Source: Escherichia coli (GTDB taxonomy: Bacteria > Pseudomonadota > Gammaproteobacteria > Enterobacterales > Enterobacteriaceae). From it: a stretch of DNA of 64,000 nucleotides. The translations under genes were made by a program, and so were the position numbers. Below are positions 1 to 8,213 of the stretch, piece after piece. The notes beneath the pieces were generated by a model. It saw only the letters and a program-made list of their open reading frames with translations. It did no database searches and was not told the origin of the DNA. Every line of letters starts with the position of its first letter. Positions within the stretch are counted from its first letter, which is position 1. Location: the NCBI RefSeq assembly GCF_009931435.1, contig NZ_CP043414.1; one strand, given 5' to 3'.

Positions 1-2604
1 GTTTTTTTTCTACATCGTCACGCACTAGAATTGCTCATTAATCGAAAACTGGATGATTGCGAATGCATAGTTCATTCAGTGGCTAGTTTATTGCCAAAGA
101 AAGAAAAATATACAGATGATGATCCGTTTTCCGGACTTATCGGATACGACCGTAGTCTCCGTGATGCGGTAGAAAAAGGCCGCGCAGCGGTGCTCTATCC
201 CCACGGACTGCATGTGCTGTTAACCGGGGCATCTGGTGTTGGCAAAACATTCTTTGCTGAGTTAATGCATTGCTTCGCTTGTAAGCACACCATAGGTTCG
301 CCACCTCCGTTGGTTTACTTTAACTGTGCCGAATATGCTCATAATCCGGAGTTGCTTTCCTCTCATCTGTTTGGTCACCATAAGGGGGCATTTACCGGGG
401 CAAGCGAGAATAAAACGGGGCTGGTGGAGCAAGCTGACGGAGGTTATTTACTTCTGGATGAAGTGCATCGCCTCCCGTATGAAGGACAAGAGAAGCTCTT
501 TTCTATTCTCGATAAAGGTGAATACCGCCCGCTTGGTTCAAGTGGGCCAACATATTCAATTTCGGTGCGCCTTATTTGCGCCACCACAGAGTTGGTCAAC
601 TCCTCACTATTGCGTACCTTCCAGCGGCGTATCCAGGTGTATATCGACTTACCGGGTATTCGCCAGCGTTCGGTCGAGGAGCAACTCGAATTGATTGTCA
701 GCTTCTTCCAGCGCGAAAGTCGTAAAATTGAACGTACCATAAGCCTTGATAAAACCCTTTTGCACTGGTTGTTAAGTAAACCCCTGGAAGGCAATATCGG
801 CCAGCTTAAAAGCGATATTCAGTTCTTGTGCGCGCAGGCGTGGGCGTCGGGAATGACCGAGCGCAATGATACACTAGAGTTAGATAAACGACTGGCGGAG
901 ATGCCGTTTAATACCACGCCGGAGCAGCGCCTGCTGGTCGATGCGTTGTTTGGCGGTAAAGATCGTTTGAACGTGGATGCGCGTACGTTGCCCGCGTTAA
1001 AAAATTCGTTGGCGACCAGCGCGGAAATAGAAGAGAGCGATCTGTTTTACAGTTTCCTGACTCGTGAATATGTCAATCTGCGCAACAGTAACGTGCCGCC
1101 CGCAGAAACGCTGGCTATCCTGAAAAACAAACTCAGTTCGATTTTTGAATACGGTCTCTATAGCCGCCATAGTACGGCGCATCCACCGCGCTATGGCGAT
1201 CAAATTGAGGAGCGGGTGACGTTGCTGATCGGTTACGTGGAGCAGGTATTAGGATTTACGTTGCCAGAAAACCTGGCGAACCCGTTACGTAAACACTTTC
1301 TTGCGCTGATTGGCTATGTGCGGCGAGGGCTTATACCTCAACTCTATTCCTCCAGCTTGATTCTGGATCGCTGTAAAGATGAGTATGACAATGCCACGCT
1401 TCTGTGCCGCAAAATCAATGAGCTGCTGCATATTCAGTGCCCGGCGATGGAGGTGGTCTGGCTGTGCCTGTTCCTGAAAGAGTGTCGCCACTACCGCCAG
1501 CGCATCGACACCAGCCCGGATTGCGGCGTGATTCTAATCGCTCACGGTGCGACCACCGCAACGAGCCAGGCGCAATATGTGAATCGGGTGCTGGAGCGCG
1601 ATCTGTTCTACGCAATTGATATGCCATTTGAGCAGTCGGTGCATGACACCCTGGAAACCCTGACCCGGATGATTCAGGACCGGTGCTGGCAGCGGCTGAT
1701 ACTGATGGTGGATATCGGATCGCTGGTTCATTTTGGCAGCACCATCAGCAAGCTGTTCCAGATTGACGTTCTGTTGTTGCCAAATATCACTCTGACCAGC
1801 CTGCTGGAGGTGGGGCTGGATTTAAGCTACGAAACTGGGGATCTATCGCAATTGGCTGTGCTTATGCAGAGTAAAAATATCCCTTGTCGGCTCTGCACGC
1901 CGCAGCAAGAGAGCGGTGGCAAAGTGCTGGTTATCTCATGTATAACCGGAATGGGGACGGCAGAAAAGATCAAAAAAGTGCTGGAGGAGAGCTTTGGCGA
2001 GCTGATGTCGCAGGACACGCGTATGGTGATTCTCGACTATAACGAGGTGCGCAGCCTGGAGCGTATTCAGCAGGCGCTTAATGCCAGTGAACGGCTGGCA
2101 GGGATCGTCGGCACCTTCCAGCCGGGACTGCCGGATATTCCGTTTATCTCGCTGGAGGAACTGTTTTCCGAGCAAGGGCCGGAGCTGGTGCTTAGCCTGC
2201 TGACTCCGGATCTCTCAAGCAGCGAGCGCCGACTGGAGATGGAGCGCAGCGCCATGCGCTTTATCAGCGCGCTGACCATGGAGAGCATCATCAACCATAT
2301 TTCGGTGCTCAACCCGCAGCGAATTCTGAAAGAGATCGAGGACGTTCTGAACCACTTAACCAACACGCTCTCCCTGAAACCGAGCCGCCAGGTGACACTA
2401 CGTTTTCTGATCCATTGCTGCTGCATGGTCGAGCGTATCGTGATTAACCGCAAACCGTTACAGATGGCGCTGGAAAACCGGCTTGATCTGGACGCTCGTG
2501 CCTTTAGCGTCATCAAATCCTCCTTTTTGCCGATTGAAGAGGCTTACGCTATCCGTTTATCGGACGCAGAATATTTTTATATCTACGAACTGCTCTACAG
2601 CTGA
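1..2604 (+). CDS. dgaR: sigma54-dependent LevR-family transcriptional activator (DgaR-like); 5' end outside window
   Basis: Frame is open from nt 1 (ORF track begins at TTG 31). Walker A GASGVGKT and the GAFTGA sigma54-contact motif are present in the N-terminal AAA+ domain; long C-terminal regulatory region; sits directly upstream of a sigma54 promoter and mannose-family PTS genes. Confidence 0.75.
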   Translation, partial: VFFLHRHALELLINRKLDDCECIVHSVASLLPKKEKYTDDDPFSGLIGYDRSLRDAVEKGRAAVLYPHGLHVLLTGASGVGKTFFAELMHCFACKHTIGSPPPLVYFNCAEYAHNPELLSSHLFGHHKGAFTGASENKTGLVEQADGGYLLLDEVHRLPYEGQEKLFSILDKGEYRPLGSSGPTYSISVRLICATTELVNSSLLRTFQRRIQVYIDLPGIRQRSVEEQLELIVSFFQRESRKIERTISLDKTLLHWLLSKPLEGNIGQLKSDIQFLCAQAWASGMTERNDTLELDKRLAEMPFNTTPEQRLLVDALFGGKDRLNVDARTLPALKNSLATSAEIEESDLFYSFLTREYVNLRNSNVPPAETLAILKNKLSSIFEYGLYSRHSTAHPPRYGDQIEERVTLLIGYVEQVLGFTLPENLANPLRKHFLALIGYVRRGLIPQLYSSSLILDRCKDEYDNATLLCRKINELLHIQCPAMEVVWLCLFLKECRHYRQRIDTSPDCGVILIAHGATTATSQAQYVNRVLERDLFYAIDMPFEQSVHDTLETLTRMIQDRCWQRLILMVDIGSLVHFGSTISKLFQIDVLLLPNITLTSLLEVGLDLSYETGDLSQLAVLMQSKNIPCRLCTPQQESGGKVLVISCITGMGTAEKIKKVLEESFGELMSQDTRMVILDYNEVRSLERIQQALNASERLAGIVGTFQPGLPDIPFISLEELFSEQGPELVLSLLTPDLSSSERRLEMERSAMRFISALTMESIINHISVLNPQRILKEIEDVLNHLTNTLSLKPSRQVTLRFLIHCCCMVERIVINRKPLQMALENRLDLDARAFSVIKSSFLPIEEAYAIRLSDAEYFYIYELLYS

Positions 2605-2668
2605 TCCCCTGATTTACGGGGCTTAAGGCCTCATCCAATCTCTTTTCCTCTGAGCGTGACACAAATTC

Positions 2669-2684
2669 TGGCACGTCCTTTGCT
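2669..2684 (+). promoter_or_regulatory. sigma54 (-24/-12) promoter TGGCAC-N5-TTGCT for the PTS operon
   Basis: ctGGcacgtcctttGCt with exactly 10 nt between GG and GC, about 40 nt upstream of the EIIA start. Confidence 0.75.
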
Positions 2685-2722
2685 CCTGACGAAATGTAAA
2701 CACTGGAGCAAAGGAGGCTATT

Positions 2723-3151
2723 TTGACCACAACTGTATCTATTCATCCGTTACCTGAAATTTTGCTGCTAACTCACGGCGGCTGGGGGCTGCAGCTCTGC
2801 AACAGTCTGCGCATGGTGATGGGCGAAATCGAAGGCGTGACGGAAATCGCGCTGATGCCTGTCGATACGCTGGGCGAGTTTTACCAGCGCGTCGAAGCCG
2901 TGGTGAAAACCATGCCAGAAGGTTCGCTTATCGTGACCGATTTTATCGGCGGCACCACCTCTAACGTGGCGGCGCGGCTGAGCGCCGATTATCCGGTGGC
3001 GGTGATCTCCGGGCTTAATGCCTCGCTGCTGCTGGAGGCGCTGGACAAGCGCGAACATGGCCCACTGACCGCCTGCGTGGCCGATCTGGTGGAAGCTGGG
3101 CGCAACAGTTGCCTGGACGTCGTCTCCCATATTCGTCAATTACAACAGTAA
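2723..3151 (+). CDS. dgaA: PTS mannose-family EIIA component
   Basis: 142 aa; LLLTHGG N-terminal His motif typical of EIIA-Man; TTG start 5 nt after AAGGAGG; the first ATG would delete the His motif. Confidence 0.8.
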   Translation: MTTTVSIHPLPEILLLTHGGWGLQLCNSLRMVMGEIEGVTEIALMPVDTLGEFYQRVEAVVKTMPEGSLIVTDFIGGTTSNVAARLSADYPVAVISGLNASLLLEALDKREHGPLTACVADLVEAGRNSCLDVVSHIRQLQQ

Positions 3152-3161
3152 GGAAAATCGT

Positions 3162-3647
3162 ATGGCAAACATCGTGTTATGTCGCATTGACAGCCGTCTT
3201 ATCCACGGACAGGTGGTGACGAAGTGGGTGGGGCAATCCCAGGCCAACCGTATTGCGGTGGTCAGCGACGAGCTGGATGCCGATCCGTTTATGAAAAATA
3301 TCTACCTGATGGCCGCGCCGCCGAATATCAAAGTGGACTGCTTCAGCAACCAGAGCTTCGCGGCCGCGTGGAAAGACAACCAGCTGGGCGACGGCAACGT
3401 GCTGGTGCTGTTCCCGTCGCTGGCGGCGATTCAGGAAGCGGTGCAGCAGGGCTTTGACGTGGCTGATATTCAGGTTGGCGGCTTAGGCGGCGGGCCAAAC
3501 CGTAAAGCGGTGTTCCAGAACATAACTCTGGATGAAAAAGACGTTGGCATTCTTAACGATTTGAAAAGTCGCGGCATTAAGGCTGTTTTCCAGACCATCC
3601 CGGAAGATAAGCCGCAGTCGCTGGACGATATCCTGAAAAAATTCTGA
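3162..3647 (+). CDS. dgaB: PTS mannose/sorbose-family EIIB component
   Basis: 161 aa; N-terminal CRIDSRLIHGQV phospho-His motif of EIIB-Man. Confidence 0.85.
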   Translation: MANIVLCRIDSRLIHGQVVTKWVGQSQANRIAVVSDELDADPFMKNIYLMAAPPNIKVDCFSNQSFAAAWKDNQLGDGNVLVLFPSLAAIQEAVQQGFDVADIQVGGLGGGPNRKAVFQNITLDEKDVGILNDLKSRGIKAVFQTIPEDKPQSLDDILKKF

Positions 3648-3672
3648 CCCTCTGAACATGGGATAACAAATT

Positions 3673-4422
3673 ATGGATACCTTACTTTTTGCAAGCCTGA
3701 TGGGGCTGTATTACTGGTTTGCCCGGTTGCGCCTTGGCTATACCTTCTCCGCCATGCTGTTACAGCCAGTGGTGGTGGCGGTCTTTGTCGGCCTGCTGCT
3801 CGGCAACATGCCTGCGGCGATGATTATCGGCGCGGGGATGCAGTTGGTATATCTGGGTGTGACCTCAACGCCAGGCGGCAATGTGCCGTCAGACCCGGCG
3901 CTGGCGGCCTGTATCGCCATTCCTATCGCCGTTAAGGCCAATATGGACCCGAACCTGGCGATTGCACTGGCGATTCCATTTGGCGTTATCGGCGTATTCC
4001 TCGACCAGTTGCGTCGCACGCTAAATGCGGCCTGGGTGCATATGGCCGATAAACACGCGGAAACGGCCAATATGTCAGCCATTATGCGCTGCGCCTTTCT
4101 CTACCCGGCGCTGCTGGGGCTGGTGCTACGTTTCCCAGTGGTGTTCGCCGCCAACTACTTCGGCCAGAACGTAGTGGAAAGTTTCCTCAAGCTGATGCCG
4201 CACTGGCTGACCCACTCGTTTGAAATCATGGGCGGGATTCTCCCGGCGCTGGGCTTCGCCATCACCATTATGGTGATTGGTAAAAAGAGCCTACTGCCGT
4301 GGTTTATCGGCGGATTCTTCGCGGTGCTGTACCTCAAGGTGGACATCATGGCGATGGCGATTTTCGGCACCTGCGTGGCCTTCCTGATTAAAGGCCTGGC
4401 GAAAAATGAAGGAGCGGCATAA
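3673..4422 (+). CDS. dgaC: PTS mannose-family EIIC membrane component
   Basis: 249 aa hydrophobic protein in EIIC position of the operon. Confidence 0.8.
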   Translation: MDTLLFASLMGLYYWFARLRLGYTFSAMLLQPVVVAVFVGLLLGNMPAAMIIGAGMQLVYLGVTSTPGGNVPSDPALAACIAIPIAVKANMDPNLAIALAIPFGVIGVFLDQLRRTLNAAWVHMADKHAETANMSAIMRCAFLYPALLGLVLRFPVVFAANYFGQNVVESFLKLMPHWLTHSFEIMGGILPALGFAITIMVIGKKSLLPWFIGGFFAVLYLKVDIMAMAIFGTCVAFLIKGLAKNEGAA

Positions 4423-5279
4423 TGAGCGGCGGCGTAATGCAGCATGAACTGGTGGAGCGCGCGCGGGAGTCCGGGGCGCTGACCAAAGCGGATATCACCA
4501 AAGCGTGGTTTATCTACTGGCTTGGCGCGGAAGTTTCCAGCTCCTATGAGCGTTTACAGAGCCTGATTTTCTGCGCCTCGATGACGCCGATTATTAAAAA
4601 GCTCTATCCGCAAAAGGAGGAGCAGGTGGAGGCGTTAAAACGCCATCTGAACTTCTTCAACTCAGAGCAGACGTTTGGCGCGGTGATCCAGGGGATCTCC
4701 ATCGCCATGGAAGAGCAAAAGACCCGCGGCGAGGCGATTAACGATGCCTCTATCACCGGGATTAAAACCGGCCTGATGGGGCCGCTGGCCGGAATGGGCG
4801 ACTCCATCATCTGGGCGGCCGTGATGCCGCTGTTGATTGCTATTTTTATCCCGTTCGCCGCCAATGGCAGCGCAATGGGCGGTATTTTGCCGCTGATTCT
4901 CTACCCGGCGATTACGCTGGCAATCAGCTACGGCATGGTGCACAAGGGCTATACGCTAGGGCGCGATTCGATTATCAGCCTGCTGCAGGGGGGGCGCATC
5001 AAGGAGCTTATCTACGGCGCTAACGTACTGGGGCTTATCATGATGGGTGCGCTATCCGCGAGCTTTGTCAAGATAACCTCACCTTTAAAAATTAGCGCAC
5101 TGAAAGGCTCTGAAGTGGTGGTACAGCAGATTCTTGACTCCATCGCGCCCGGCCTACTGCCGCTGGCGGCAGTGTTCGCGATCTACTTCTATCAGGTGAA
5201 AAAGGGACCGCGTTACACCACGATTTTGCTGTCAATTGTGGCGTTGAGCGTGGTCTGCTCGCTGCTGGGAGTGCTGTAA
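4422..5279 (+). CDS. dgaD: PTS mannose-family EIID membrane component
   Basis: 285 aa; ATG overlaps the dgaC stop (ATAATG); EIID-like membrane protein. Confidence 0.8.
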   Translation: MSGGVMQHELVERARESGALTKADITKAWFIYWLGAEVSSSYERLQSLIFCASMTPIIKKLYPQKEEQVEALKRHLNFFNSEQTFGAVIQGISIAMEEQKTRGEAINDASITGIKTGLMGPLAGMGDSIIWAAVMPLLIAIFIPFAANGSAMGGILPLILYPAITLAISYGMVHKGYTLGRDSIISLLQGGRIKELIYGANVLGLIMMGALSASFVKITSPLKISALKGSEVVVQQILDSIAPGLLPLAAVFAIYFYQVKKGPRYTTILLSIVALSVVCSLLGVL

Positions 5280-5282
5280 GCC

Positions 5283-6392
5283 ATGACGCAGAATATCTAT
5301 CAACAACTGGGGCTGAAACAAGTGATTAACGCTTGCGGTAAGATGACGATTCTCGGCGTCTCCAGTGTCGCGCCGGAGGTGATGCAGGCCACCGCGCGTG
5401 CGGCATCCTCTTTCGTGGAGATTGATCAGCTGGTGGACAAAACCGGCGAGCTGGTCTCTCGCTTTACCGGGGCGGAGGATAGCTACGTTACCTCCTGCGC
5501 CTCGGCAGGGATCGCCATCGCTATCGCCGCCGCCATTACCCGCGGCGACAAGGCCCGGGTGGCGCTCATGCCGGATAGCTCCGGCATGGCCAATGAAGTG
5601 GTGATGCTGCGCGGCCATAACGTCGATTACGGCGCATCGATCCTCAGCGCGATCCGCTTAGGCGGCGGGCGCGTGGTGGAGGTGGGGTCAAGTAACCTGG
5701 CGGCTCTCTGGCAGCTGGAGAGTGCCATTACCGACGCGACCGCCGCGCTGCTGTATGTGAAGTCGCATCACTGCGTGCAGAAGGGGATGTTGAACATCGA
5801 GGACTTCGCCCAAGTCGCGCAGATGCACAACCTGCCGTTGATTGTCGATGCCGCCGCCGAAGAGGATTTACGTGCCTGGGTGGTGAGCGGAGCGGATATG
5901 GTGGTCTACAGCGGCGCAAAAGCCTTTAACGCGCCTACCTCCGGGTTTATCACTGGTAAAAAAATCTGGATTGCAGCCTGTAAAGCGCAGCATTACGGCA
6001 TTGCCAGGGCGATGAAAATCGGCAAGGAGAACATGGTTGGGCTGGTTTACGCGCTGGAGAATTATCACCAGGGGCAGGCAATCATCACCGCGGAACAGCT
6101 CCAGCCAGTGGTTGAAGCGATTTCTGCGATTCACGGGTTAACGGCTGATATTGAGCAGGATGAAGCCGGGCGTGCAATCTGGCGTATTCGTATTCGGGTA
6201 AATGCGCAAGAATTTGGAGTTGCCGCTCGCGTCGTCGAAGCGCAACTGCGTGGTGGCGATATCGCGATTTATACACGGCGGTATAACCTCCACCAGGGCG
6301 TTTTTAGCCTTGATCCGCGTACGGTGGCGGATGGGGAGATGGCGCTTATCGTGGCGCGACTGAAGGAGATTGCAGATCATGCAAAAGATTAA
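5283..6392 (+). CDS. dgaE: SelA-like PLP-dependent enzyme (D-glucosaminate-6-phosphate ammonia-lyase-like)
   Basis: 369 aa; SGAKAF-type PLP-lysine region; position after EIID matches the Salmonella dga operon order. Confidence 0.7.
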   Translation: MTQNIYQQLGLKQVINACGKMTILGVSSVAPEVMQATARAASSFVEIDQLVDKTGELVSRFTGAEDSYVTSCASAGIAIAIAAAITRGDKARVALMPDSSGMANEVVMLRGHNVDYGASILSAIRLGGGRVVEVGSSNLAALWQLESAITDATAALLYVKSHHCVQKGMLNIEDFAQVAQMHNLPLIVDAAAEEDLRAWVVSGADMVVYSGAKAFNAPTSGFITGKKIWIAACKAQHYGIARAMKIGKENMVGLVYALENYHQGQAIITAEQLQPVVEAISAIHGLTADIEQDEAGRAIWRIRIRVNAQEFGVAARVVEAQLRGGDIAIYTRRYNLHQGVFSLDPRTVADGEMALIVARLKEIADHAKD

Positions 6393-7122
6393 TTTCTATC
6401 ATAATCGTGTGGCAATTAATGTGCTGGCGAAAGATATCGCCAATGCCCGTGAAATCTATGACGCCGCCGAAGGCCACGCGGTGATTGGCGTGCTTTCCGC
6501 GCAGTTCTCCTCGGTGGATGAGGGGATCCAGGAAGTTAAACGTTGGATGGCGGAAATACCGTCCATTTCAGTAGGTCTGGGGGCGGGTGACCCGGCGCAG
6601 TATTACAAAGCTGCGATGATTGCGGCGCAGATTCATCCAGCACACGTTAACCAGACCTTTACCGGTTGTGGTTTCGCGGCAGGCGCGCTTGCGACGACGG
6701 GCGGTGAGCAGACCCATGTCAACGCGCTGGTTAGCCCGACGGGAACGCCGGGCGAAGTGCTGATTTCCACTGGCGTTAGCAGCAGCCAGGGTACGCCTGC
6801 CCGCGTATCCTGCGATACGGCAGTGCGAATGATGCTAGATATGGGCGCACACGCGGCGAAGTTCTTTCCGATGGGCGGCGAGAAGTCGCTTCCGGAGCTA
6901 TACGCGCTGGCGACCACGGCGGCGCGCAATGGTATGACGCTGATTGAGCCAACCGGCGGGATTGATTTGGATAACTTCAGTGTGATTCTAAAAACTTGTC
7001 TGGAGGCGGGTGTGCCGCGCATTATGCCGCATGTTTACAGCTCGATTATAGACCCTGATACGGGATATACCCGACCGGATGATGTAGCCGTTTTGCTGAA
7101 TAAAGTGAAATCACTACTCTGA
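6379..7122 (+). CDS. dgaF: KDPG-aldolase-family protein
   Basis: AKFFPMGG and EPTGGI motifs resemble Eda FKFFPA and CPTGGI; ATG 6379 preceded by GAAGGAG (ORF track starts at TTG 6370). Confidence 0.7.
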   Translation: MQKINFYHNRVAINVLAKDIANAREIYDAAEGHAVIGVLSAQFSSVDEGIQEVKRWMAEIPSISVGLGAGDPAQYYKAAMIAAQIHPAHVNQTFTGCGFAAGALATTGGEQTHVNALVSPTGTPGEVLISTGVSSSQGTPARVSCDTAVRMMLDMGAHAAKFFPMGGEKSLPELYALATTAARNGMTLIEPTGGIDLDNFSVILKTCLEAGVPRIMPHVYSSIIDPDTGYTRPDDVAVLLNKVKSLL

Positions 7123-7936: not shown

Positions 7937-8213
7937 GTTTTCTCTTCCGCACAAGGTCAGGATTATTCTAAAAATGCGCCGTTTGCAGGTGAATCGACGC
8001 TCAGTCTCAGTATAAGGAAAAGCGCAGCGGACGGGCGAGCAGATTGCGCAACATGCGAGCATGATCCAGAGATTTCTGAAGCGGCAAAAGGATGTTCCAT
8101 GTACATGACGCGCGGCTTGCGGTAAATTGTTGGCAAATTTTCCGGCGTAGCCCAAAACGCGCTGTCGTCAAGTCGTTAAGGGCGTGCCCTTCATCATCCG
8201 ATCTGGAGTCAAA

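Follow-up and report, generated by a model that had tools for sequence, protein, structure and literature searches.

A predicted sigma54-dependent promoter and a conserved UUG start codon at the D-glucosaminate PTS operon dgaABCDEF of Escherichia coli

The window is a 64,000-nucleotide stretch of Escherichia coli DNA (assembly GCF_009931435.1, contig NZ_CP043414.1), and all features described below lie on its plus strand unless called antisense. It opens within dgaR (also named dagR), of which the 3' 2.6 kb occupy positions 1-2604 and the start lies about 194 nt before the window. The product is a predicted LevR-type sigma54 enhancer-binding protein. It matched the DagR equivalog model NF047795 with 1401.8 bits against a cutoff of 1400, although its first ~75 residues fall outside the window, and it also matched Sigma54_activat models. 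The translation contains GAFTGA, the motif of the loop that contacts sigma54. In RefSeq the gene is annotated as a 932-aa dagR at L001 3507-6305.

Downstream of dgaR lie the six genes dgaABCDEF, which are tightly packed, with neighbors either overlapping or no more than 25 nt apart. The first, dgaA (2723-3151), encodes a 142-aa PTS EIIA of the mannose family matched by both TIGR00824 and PF03610, with the codon of the phospho-acceptor His18 at 2774-2776. It is followed by the EIIB gene dgaB (3162-3647, TIGR00854 match and RefSeq), the EIIC gene dgaC (3673-4422, subfamily model and RefSeq) and the EIID gene dgaD (4422-5279), whose ATG overlaps the dgaC stop codon (ATAATG); each of these four PTS products matched a mannose-family subunit model. 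The ammonia-lyase gene dgaE (5283-6392) matched the equivalog NF047797 with 687.7 bits against a cutoff of 600. The last gene, dgaF or dagF (6379-7122, taking the RefSeq start), encodes a KDPG aldolase, matched the equivalog NF047796 with 352 bits against a cutoff of 300 and overlaps the end of dgaE. No terminator was found in a scan at the operon end. Judged by the DgaR, DgaE and DagF equivalogs surrounding EIIABCD, the locus is the accessory dgaR(dagR)-dgaABCDEF D-glucosaminate PTS operon.

The RefSeq gene order is speA, a hypothetical gene, speB, dagR, EIIA, EIIB, EIIC, EIID, dgaE, dagF, loiP (on the opposite strand) and tkt, so that the D-glucosaminate PTS locus is inserted between speB and loiP. 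It is present in 562 of 5426 complete E. coli genomes (~10%), always as a single copy and always on the chromosome. The region queried was 100% identical to E. coli strain 2020CK-00188.

The dgaR stop (2604) and the TTG codon at which dgaA is annotated to start are separated by a gap of 118 nt. Directly 3' of the stop, the sequence can be read as a short hairpin, CCCC...GGGG (2606-2621), possibly a weak dgaR terminator. A scan of 2300-3300 called no intrinsic terminator, the hairpin having gone uncalled because it lacks a T-run. A GC-rich hairpin is found at this position in all related loci described below, with a T-run added in the low-GC relatives.

A putative sigma54 promoter lies within the gap, beginning 65 nt past the dgaR stop and ending 39 nt short of the dgaA start. 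The -24 element TGGCAC is at 2669-2674 (GG at 2670-2671) and the -12 element TTGCT at 2680-2684 (GC at 2682-2683), with the 5-nt spacer GTCCT between them at 2675-2679. The initial annotation had described a textbook promoter of the form TGGCAC-N5-TTGCT with -24/-12 spacing. The sequence at 2669-2684 is indeed an exact match to this form. The epithet "textbook" fits the 16-nt core but not the flank at -10/-9, which reads CC.

The statistical support for the motif was assessed across the 64-kb window. On both strands together, the exact consensus TGGCACN5TTGCW occurs once, against 0.09 matches expected, and 9 of 100 shuffled windows contained at least one such match. Allowing a single mismatch makes the search uninformative, with four matches against 3.5 expected. 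A position-specific scoring matrix (PSSM) was trained on 28 other intergenic, experimentally supported sigma54 sites of Salmonella LT2, with the dgaA site excluded (Table 3, PMC3844500). In its 16-nt form the matrix ranked 2669-2684 first in the window, with a score of 18.1-19.1 bits (median of the training sites, 17.1-17.9); 5 of 100 shuffles scored at least as high. Under the 18-nt form the site fell to rank 2-4 and scored lower than every training site, a drop traced to CC at -10/-9, which the small training set hardly contains. The motif by itself is thus marginal and only suggestive, with p about 0.05-0.09 per window. It is the combination of its position and its conservation, rather than the motif alone, that makes the match more than chance.

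Conservation was assessed in 36 related loci. A genome scan gave 26 orthologous loci from Escherichia, Citrobacter, Cedecea, Pantoea, Erwinia, Klebsiella, Enterobacter, Superficieibacter, Yokenella and Trabulsiella. Protein look-ups gave ten more: a Salmonella-type variant, Hafnia, Limnobaculum, Serratia, five low-GC metagenomic contigs and one without DNA. A TGGCA(C/T)-N5-T(T/C)GC box aimed at the EIIA gene was present in 37/37 sequences, that is, in the window and in each of the related loci, those of low-GC bacteria included; the -24 element was conserved in all 37, and TTGC was kept in all sequences compared. The first base of the box lies 43-59 nt before the start codon in 26 of the 36 loci and 70-74 nt before it in Hafnia, Limnobaculum and Serratia. 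In six loci the distance is 147-154 nt, owing to the insertion of a REP/BIME-like element (~93 nt) in the leader. Among five E. coli/Escherichia sequences the box is invariant, and the spacer just upstream carries substitutions.

These data bear on the possibility that the -24/-12 match has no function in E. coli, where the operon might be expressed by read-through from dgaR or from an unrecognized sigma70 promoter, or might be a silent accessory island. Such a reading would accommodate the motif being reached by 5-9% of shuffled windows, the atypical CC at -10/-9, and the weakness of the post-dgaR hairpin, which, having no T-run, could permit read-through. In addition, dgaA is frameshifted in at least one strain (GB089). 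Nevertheless, the box is kept in 36/36 related loci from several bacterial families amid a variable spacer, the sampled E. coli strains all carry it unchanged, and a scan of 2300-3300 detected no sigma70-like promoter. The Salmonella orthologue is, moreover, bound by sigma54 and dependent on both sigma54 and DgaR, as set out below. We therefore regard a non-functional match as very unlikely and consider the site probably a working promoter.

In Salmonella Typhimurium LT2, microarrays of strains supplied with a promiscuous activator showed a 39-fold drop in STM3772-3766 (dgaABCDEF) expression on deletion of rpoN, and ChIP-chip showed 3.6x enrichment of sigma54 holoenzyme at TGGCACAACCTTTGCTCT upstream of dgaA (PMC3844500). 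The activator of the Salmonella operon is DgaR (STM3773), and D-glucosaminate is both substrate and inducer (PMC4987338). In Salmonella, HPr~P is reported to activate DgaR, and phosphorylation by the EII components reportedly inhibits it in the absence of substrate (PMC4987338, with reference to Miller et al. 2013). The E. coli locus has the same gene order as its Salmonella counterpart, dgaR-EIIA-B-C-D-dgaE-dgaF. The 18-mer of the window, TGGCACGTCCTTTGCTCC, is equal to that of LT2 at 15/18 positions, and the LT2 18-mer occurs exactly in the Citrobacter orthologue L007, whose EIIA is 89% identical to that of the window. The two loci differ in that the E. coli copy is accessory, lies elsewhere on the chromosome (speB/loiP) and has CC rather than CT at -10/-9. 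One further locus, L029, was considered as the LT2 dga operon and rejected: it has the same regulator and EIIABCD, but it lacks dgaEF and its box differs (TGGCATGCCTCTTGCG).

The promoter elements, their conservation and the orthology of the locus are directly observed in the sequences compared. On this comparison the box in the window is the orthologue of Salmonella PdgaA, which has been characterized, and the dgaA start is one that RefSeq already annotates. By analogy with Salmonella, binding of and dependence on sigma54, dependence on DgaR and the identity of the substrate would carry over to the E. coli locus, and we infer that the promoter functions in E. coli. A literature search found no paper on the dga operon or its promoter in E. 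coli, nor a mapped start site. Samuels et al. stated that the activators in question have no E. coli orthologues (PMC3844500). This statement no longer holds across sequenced E. coli and presumably referred to the reference genomes of that time.

Many sigma54 sites in Salmonella are not promoters (PMC3844500). It is therefore conceivable that sigma54 holoenzyme bound at the site acts mainly as a roadblock to, or repressor of, transcription reading through from dgaR, a role suggested for some sites within Salmonella genes. The PSSM also picked out a second sigma54-like site, antisense within dgaR at 1611-1626, which could be cited in favor of this role. However, the antisense site shows no conservation outside Escherichia and is probably a chance match or lineage-specific; we have rejected it as a conserved element. 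The site at 2669-2684, for its part, is intergenic, oriented toward the operon and at a typical leader distance from it, and sigma54 strongly raises expression of the orthologous operon. A roadblock function is accordingly extremely improbable, and the site is better read as a promoter directed at dgaA.

If position -12 is assigned to the C of the GC dinucleotide and standard sigma54 geometry applies, the promoter would start transcription near 2694-2696. The predicted 5' leader, at 2695-2722, is ~28 nt long and appears to be unstructured. Over the leader and initiation region, shuffled counterparts tend to be more strongly folded (z = +1.58 for the native sequence; 194/200 shuffles fold at least as well). 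An Rfam scan of 2400-3000 gave no match in the leader, the sole match being a sub-threshold gntR-DTE within the coding region.

At the end of the leader, a Shine-Dalgarno sequence AAGGAGG (2711-2717) is followed after 5 nt (CTATT) by the TTG codon at 2723-2725, just as the initial annotation had placed them. The nearest upstream in-frame stop is the TGA at 2687, and there is no ATG, GTG or TTG between this stop and 2723, making this TTG the first available start. RefSeq places the start of the coding sequence at the same TTG in two independent genomes. The further claim that the first in-frame ATG lies beyond the phospho-His motif also proved correct, since this ATG is codon 31 (2813) and His18 is encoded by the CAC at 2774-2776. 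The start at TTG 2723 had, however, been called obligatory, and in this respect the claim was slightly too strong. The RefSeq annotation, the conservation and the Shine-Dalgarno sequence all support the start itself, but codon 14 (2762) is likewise an in-frame TTG located before the His codon; it has no Shine-Dalgarno sequence. This inner TTG is lineage-specific, most genera and the other E. coli strains having CTG there; it is comparative data, and not logic, that rule it out.

TTG is found at the annotated start position in 31/31 Enterobacterales sequences, with AGGAGG 5 nt upstream (6 nt in Hafnia). In the five low-GC homologues the EIIA start is ATG in four and GTG in one. The distance from the TTG to the His codon is 33, 36, 42, 51 or 57 nt. 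All these distances are multiples of 3 and the intervening sequences are stop-free, indicating that the stretch is translated in the dgaA frame. In seven loci the stretch up to the His codon offers no alternative ATG, GTG or TTG. Full-length homologues down to 45% identity share a Met, 4-13 variable residues and the motif (E/Q)I(L/I)LLTHGGWG, of which THGGWG is invariant in all homologues inspected. TTG 2723 thus has the sequence marks of a genuine UUG start, namely Shine-Dalgarno spacing, the lack of an upstream in-frame start, conservation, and coding-type constraint that begins at the TTG.

Public databases nevertheless hold three versions of DgaA, of 142, 135 and about 112 aa (111-116). 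The 111-116-aa versions begin MV(M/T)GEI, and the 135-aa IMG versions start at an inner TTG; the shortest versions lack the catalytic His. These gene calls, together with the presence of TTG 2762 in the window, could be taken to mean that dgaA translation begins downstream, at TTG 2762 or ATG 2813. A protein initiated at ATG 2813 would lack His18 as well as strand beta-1 of the EIIA-Man fold. Initiation at TTG 2762 would leave only 3 residues before THGG and would use a codon that has no Shine-Dalgarno sequence and is CTG elsewhere; the inner TTG of Citrobacter corresponds to TTA in E. coli. Both downstream starts are also at odds with the length changes separating the first TTG from the His codon, which always come in multiples of 3 and bring in no stop, and with a region from -14 to +4 around that TTG that is almost invariant despite saturation of neutral sites. 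A downstream start is very unlikely, and UUG 2723 is retained as the start of dgaA.

The degree of saturation was determined in 30 Enterobacterales sequences (the count of 31 given above includes Serratia). Among codons for invariant residues, none of 30 fourfold-degenerate sites was invariant, and only 5 of 100 third positions were. In the same 30 sequences, the first T of the TTG and almost all of -14 to +4 were invariant. An A or G at the first base of the TTG would still allow initiation, so this invariance suggests selection for UUG itself or for its surrounding context. A weak UUG codon combined with a near-perfect Shine-Dalgarno sequence may therefore be actively maintained across the Enterobacterales. 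One possible reason would be to set the dosage of EIIA relative to DgaR, given the reported inhibition of DgaR by EII.

Immediately upstream of the -24 element is a block, GCGTGACACAAATTC, at 2654-2668 (about -41 to -27). It is the sole conserved non-coding element besides the -24/-12 box. The GCGTGACACAAAYTC block is near-invariant in the aligned Enterobacterales loci, while the remainder of the spacer is variable. It partly mirrors the -24 box, giving GTGCCA-N6-TGGCAC in Serratia and Limnobaculum. A related (A/G/T)T(G/T)ACACAAA block, in the form of TTGTGACACAA, GTTACACAAA or ATGACACAAA, is present in 3/5 low-GC loci, and one low-GC locus has a TTGTG-A-CACAA mirror.

The binding site (UAS) of DgaR is given as "NK" in the literature (PMC4987338), and the 65-nt spacer between dgaR and the promoter leaves little room for a UAS at the usual distance. 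From its conservation, the GCGTGACACAAAYTC block is a candidate DgaR site, though it lies nearer to the promoter than a typical UAS or classical enhancer site. More generally, it may be an undescribed promoter-proximal cis element of DgaR-type sigma54 promoters, acting either as a close activator site or as an extended contact for the holoenzyme. That the conserved UUG and this block together amount to more than a plain promoter and start codon is a tentative reading, and we think it rather improbable. Two other candidates were discarded. Half-site matches to CRP or IHF within the block, judged by eye, were poor. An apparent inverted second copy of the block in the 3' end of dgaR (about 2504-2514) shares a core of only 6 nt, is not kept in E. 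coli and is inseparable from coding constraint.

The TGGCAC-N5-TTGC geometry at 2669-2684 is the same as that of the glnAp2, pspA, gltI and glnK promoters, all of which need an AAA+ activator with GAFTGA. The core of the window site is nearly identical to those of gltI (TGGCACGTCTATTGCT) and glnK (TGGCACATCCTTTGCA). In contrast to these four promoters, the activator at the dga locus is of LevR type with PTS regulation domains and is not a two-component response regulator, the sequence adjoining the -24 element is unusually conserved, and the distance from the upstream gene to the promoter is only 65 nt.

The overall layout, with a LevR-like activator, a -24/-12 promoter and mannose-family EIIA/B/C/D, is shared with the LevR levanase operon of Bacillus subtilis and its kin in the Firmicutes. 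The low-GC homologues of the dga locus share this arrangement as well, but their EIIA starts are ATG or GTG and not TTG. The LevR binding site is reported to lie about 125 bp upstream of its promoter. The window has no defined counterpart to this site.

DgaA belongs to the same fold family as the IIA domain of E. coli ManX (PDB 1PDO and 1VSQ), in which the phospho-His is located in a T-H-G loop following strand beta-1. The sequence ILLLTHGG of DgaA aligns with IVIGTHG of ManX IIA, and also with PDB 3LFH, and His18 falls at the position of the ManX phospho-His, which is His10. The two proteins are distant relatives (E about 1e-8). Unlike ManX IIA, DgaA is a stand-alone EIIA, and it has ~8 extra residues at its N terminus.

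We are highly confident that 2669-2684 is PdgaA, the RpoN-dependent promoter of dgaABCDEF, and that dgaA starts at UUG 2723. If the Salmonella orthologue is a reliable guide, sigma54 holoenzyme would bind the GG and GC elements as a closed complex, which DgaR would remodel to an open complex using ATP, and DgaR activity would be set by PTS phosphorylation, as reported in Salmonella. Transcription starting near 2694-2696 would then yield the ~28-nt unstructured leader, in which the strong AAGGAGG would be presented to UUG 2723. Translation from this codon would give the 142-aa EIIA, consisting at its N terminus of a short variable tail, strand beta-1 (EILLL) and the phospho-acceptor His18. In this protein family EIIA takes its phosphate from HPr~P. 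His18 of DgaA would accept it in this way and hand it to EIIB, from which it would pass to the sugar.

The value of these results is mainly confirmatory. The inconsistency in annotation among 142-, 135- and about 112-aa versions of DgaA is settled. The conserved UUG bears on the tuning of expression of a PTS component that in turn acts back on its activator, and the block adjoining the -24 box bears on where activators of LevR type bind in Gram-negative bacteria. In E. coli strains that carry the island, D-glucosaminate uptake is very likely controlled in the same way as in Salmonella, by sigma54 together with a PTS-sensing activator of LevR type.

The translation initiation region of the EIIA gene dgaA, from positions -14 to +4 (window 2709-2727; GCCAGGAGGCCATTTTGAC-like), is, together with the T of the TTG codon, essentially invariant in 30 Enterobacterales loci, whereas 0 of 30 fourfold-degenerate sites of the same gene are invariant. 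In the low-GC homologues the EIIA start is ATG or GTG. This comparison of sequences suggests that the UUG start of dgaA is kept by selection. Public gene callers disagree about this start. The NCBI version of EIIA has 141-142 amino acids and uses the first TTG, and the IMG version often has 135 amino acids and uses an inner TTG (protein clusters P0126, P0129, and P0137). Versions begun at an internal ATG have about 112 amino acids and lack the phospho-His residue (111-116 amino acids; P0058, P0070, P0146, P0168, and P0173). Over-extended calls of 167-181 amino acids are also found (P0024 and P0040). Further along the operon, the EIID coding sequence is annotated in RefSeq with an ATA start at window position 4419, one codon 5' of ATG 4422 (8120-8125 in locus L001). 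ATG 4422 overlaps the EIIC stop codon (ATAATG; window 4419-4424) and seems the more natural start, with the ATA call seemingly an annotation quirk.

Upstream of dgaA, a block with the sequence GCGTGACACAAAYTC (window 2654-2668, plus strand) directly abuts the -24 element of the sigma54 promoter. The block is near-invariant across the Enterobacterales, and the remainder of the dgaR-dgaA spacer is variable. It occupies the same position as in the window in loci L003-L031 and L039, and a related block is present in the low-GC loci L033, L036, and L038. In Serratia and Limnobaculum the sequence is GTGCCA-N6-TGGCAC, so that the -24 hexamer is repeated exactly in inverted orientation, and in L033 the block is the palindrome TTGTG-A-CACAA. 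The block is a candidate DgaR site, or it could be an extended holoenzyme contact.

A second sigma54-like site, TGGCATATCAATTGCG, lies antisense inside dgaR (window 1611-1626, minus strand) and ranks second among the matches in the window to a matrix built from experimentally supported Salmonella sites, with 14.3-15.9 bits. Its only occurrences in the enterobacterial loci are those in Escherichia (the window and L003), and a similar match occurs in one low-GC locus, L033. The antisense site is probably due to chance or specific to a lineage.

The entire dga island lies between speB and loiP (window 1-7122; L001), and only about 10% of the complete E. coli genomes carry it. The version of the island in the window shares 97-99% identity with the other E. 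coli copies and is matched at 99% or above by a single genome, so a divergent Escherichia lineage may be the source of the window. In E. coli GB089 (L034) dgaA is a pseudogene that has lost one G from the GGGGG run directly after the His codon (equivalent to window 2783-2787), which suggests that decay of the accessory operon is under way in certain lineages. A metagenomic contig (L029), with a protein named as Salmonella enterica Choleraesuis, encodes a LevR-type regulator and EIIABCD as in the dga locus. It has the TTG start, the conserved upstream block, and the box TGGCATGCCTCTTGCG, and lacks dgaE and dgaF downstream. This variant locus is possibly a PTS paralogue specific for another substrate.

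In six loci (L005, L008, L010, L015, L020, and L025) the predicted 5' leader contains an element of ∼93 nucleotides composed of two inverted REP-like units in a BIME-like arrangement, GCCGGATGGCGGC...CCTTATCCGGCCTAC and GTAGGCCTGATAAGCG...CATCAGGC. The element lies about 35-130 nucleotides upstream of the TTG, with the -12 box on its 5' side and the Shine-Dalgarno sequence on its 3' side, and its insertion site is identical in Citrobacter, Enterobacter, and Superficieibacter. The predicted leader is an unusual location for a REP element, and the insertion could affect leader stability or translation.
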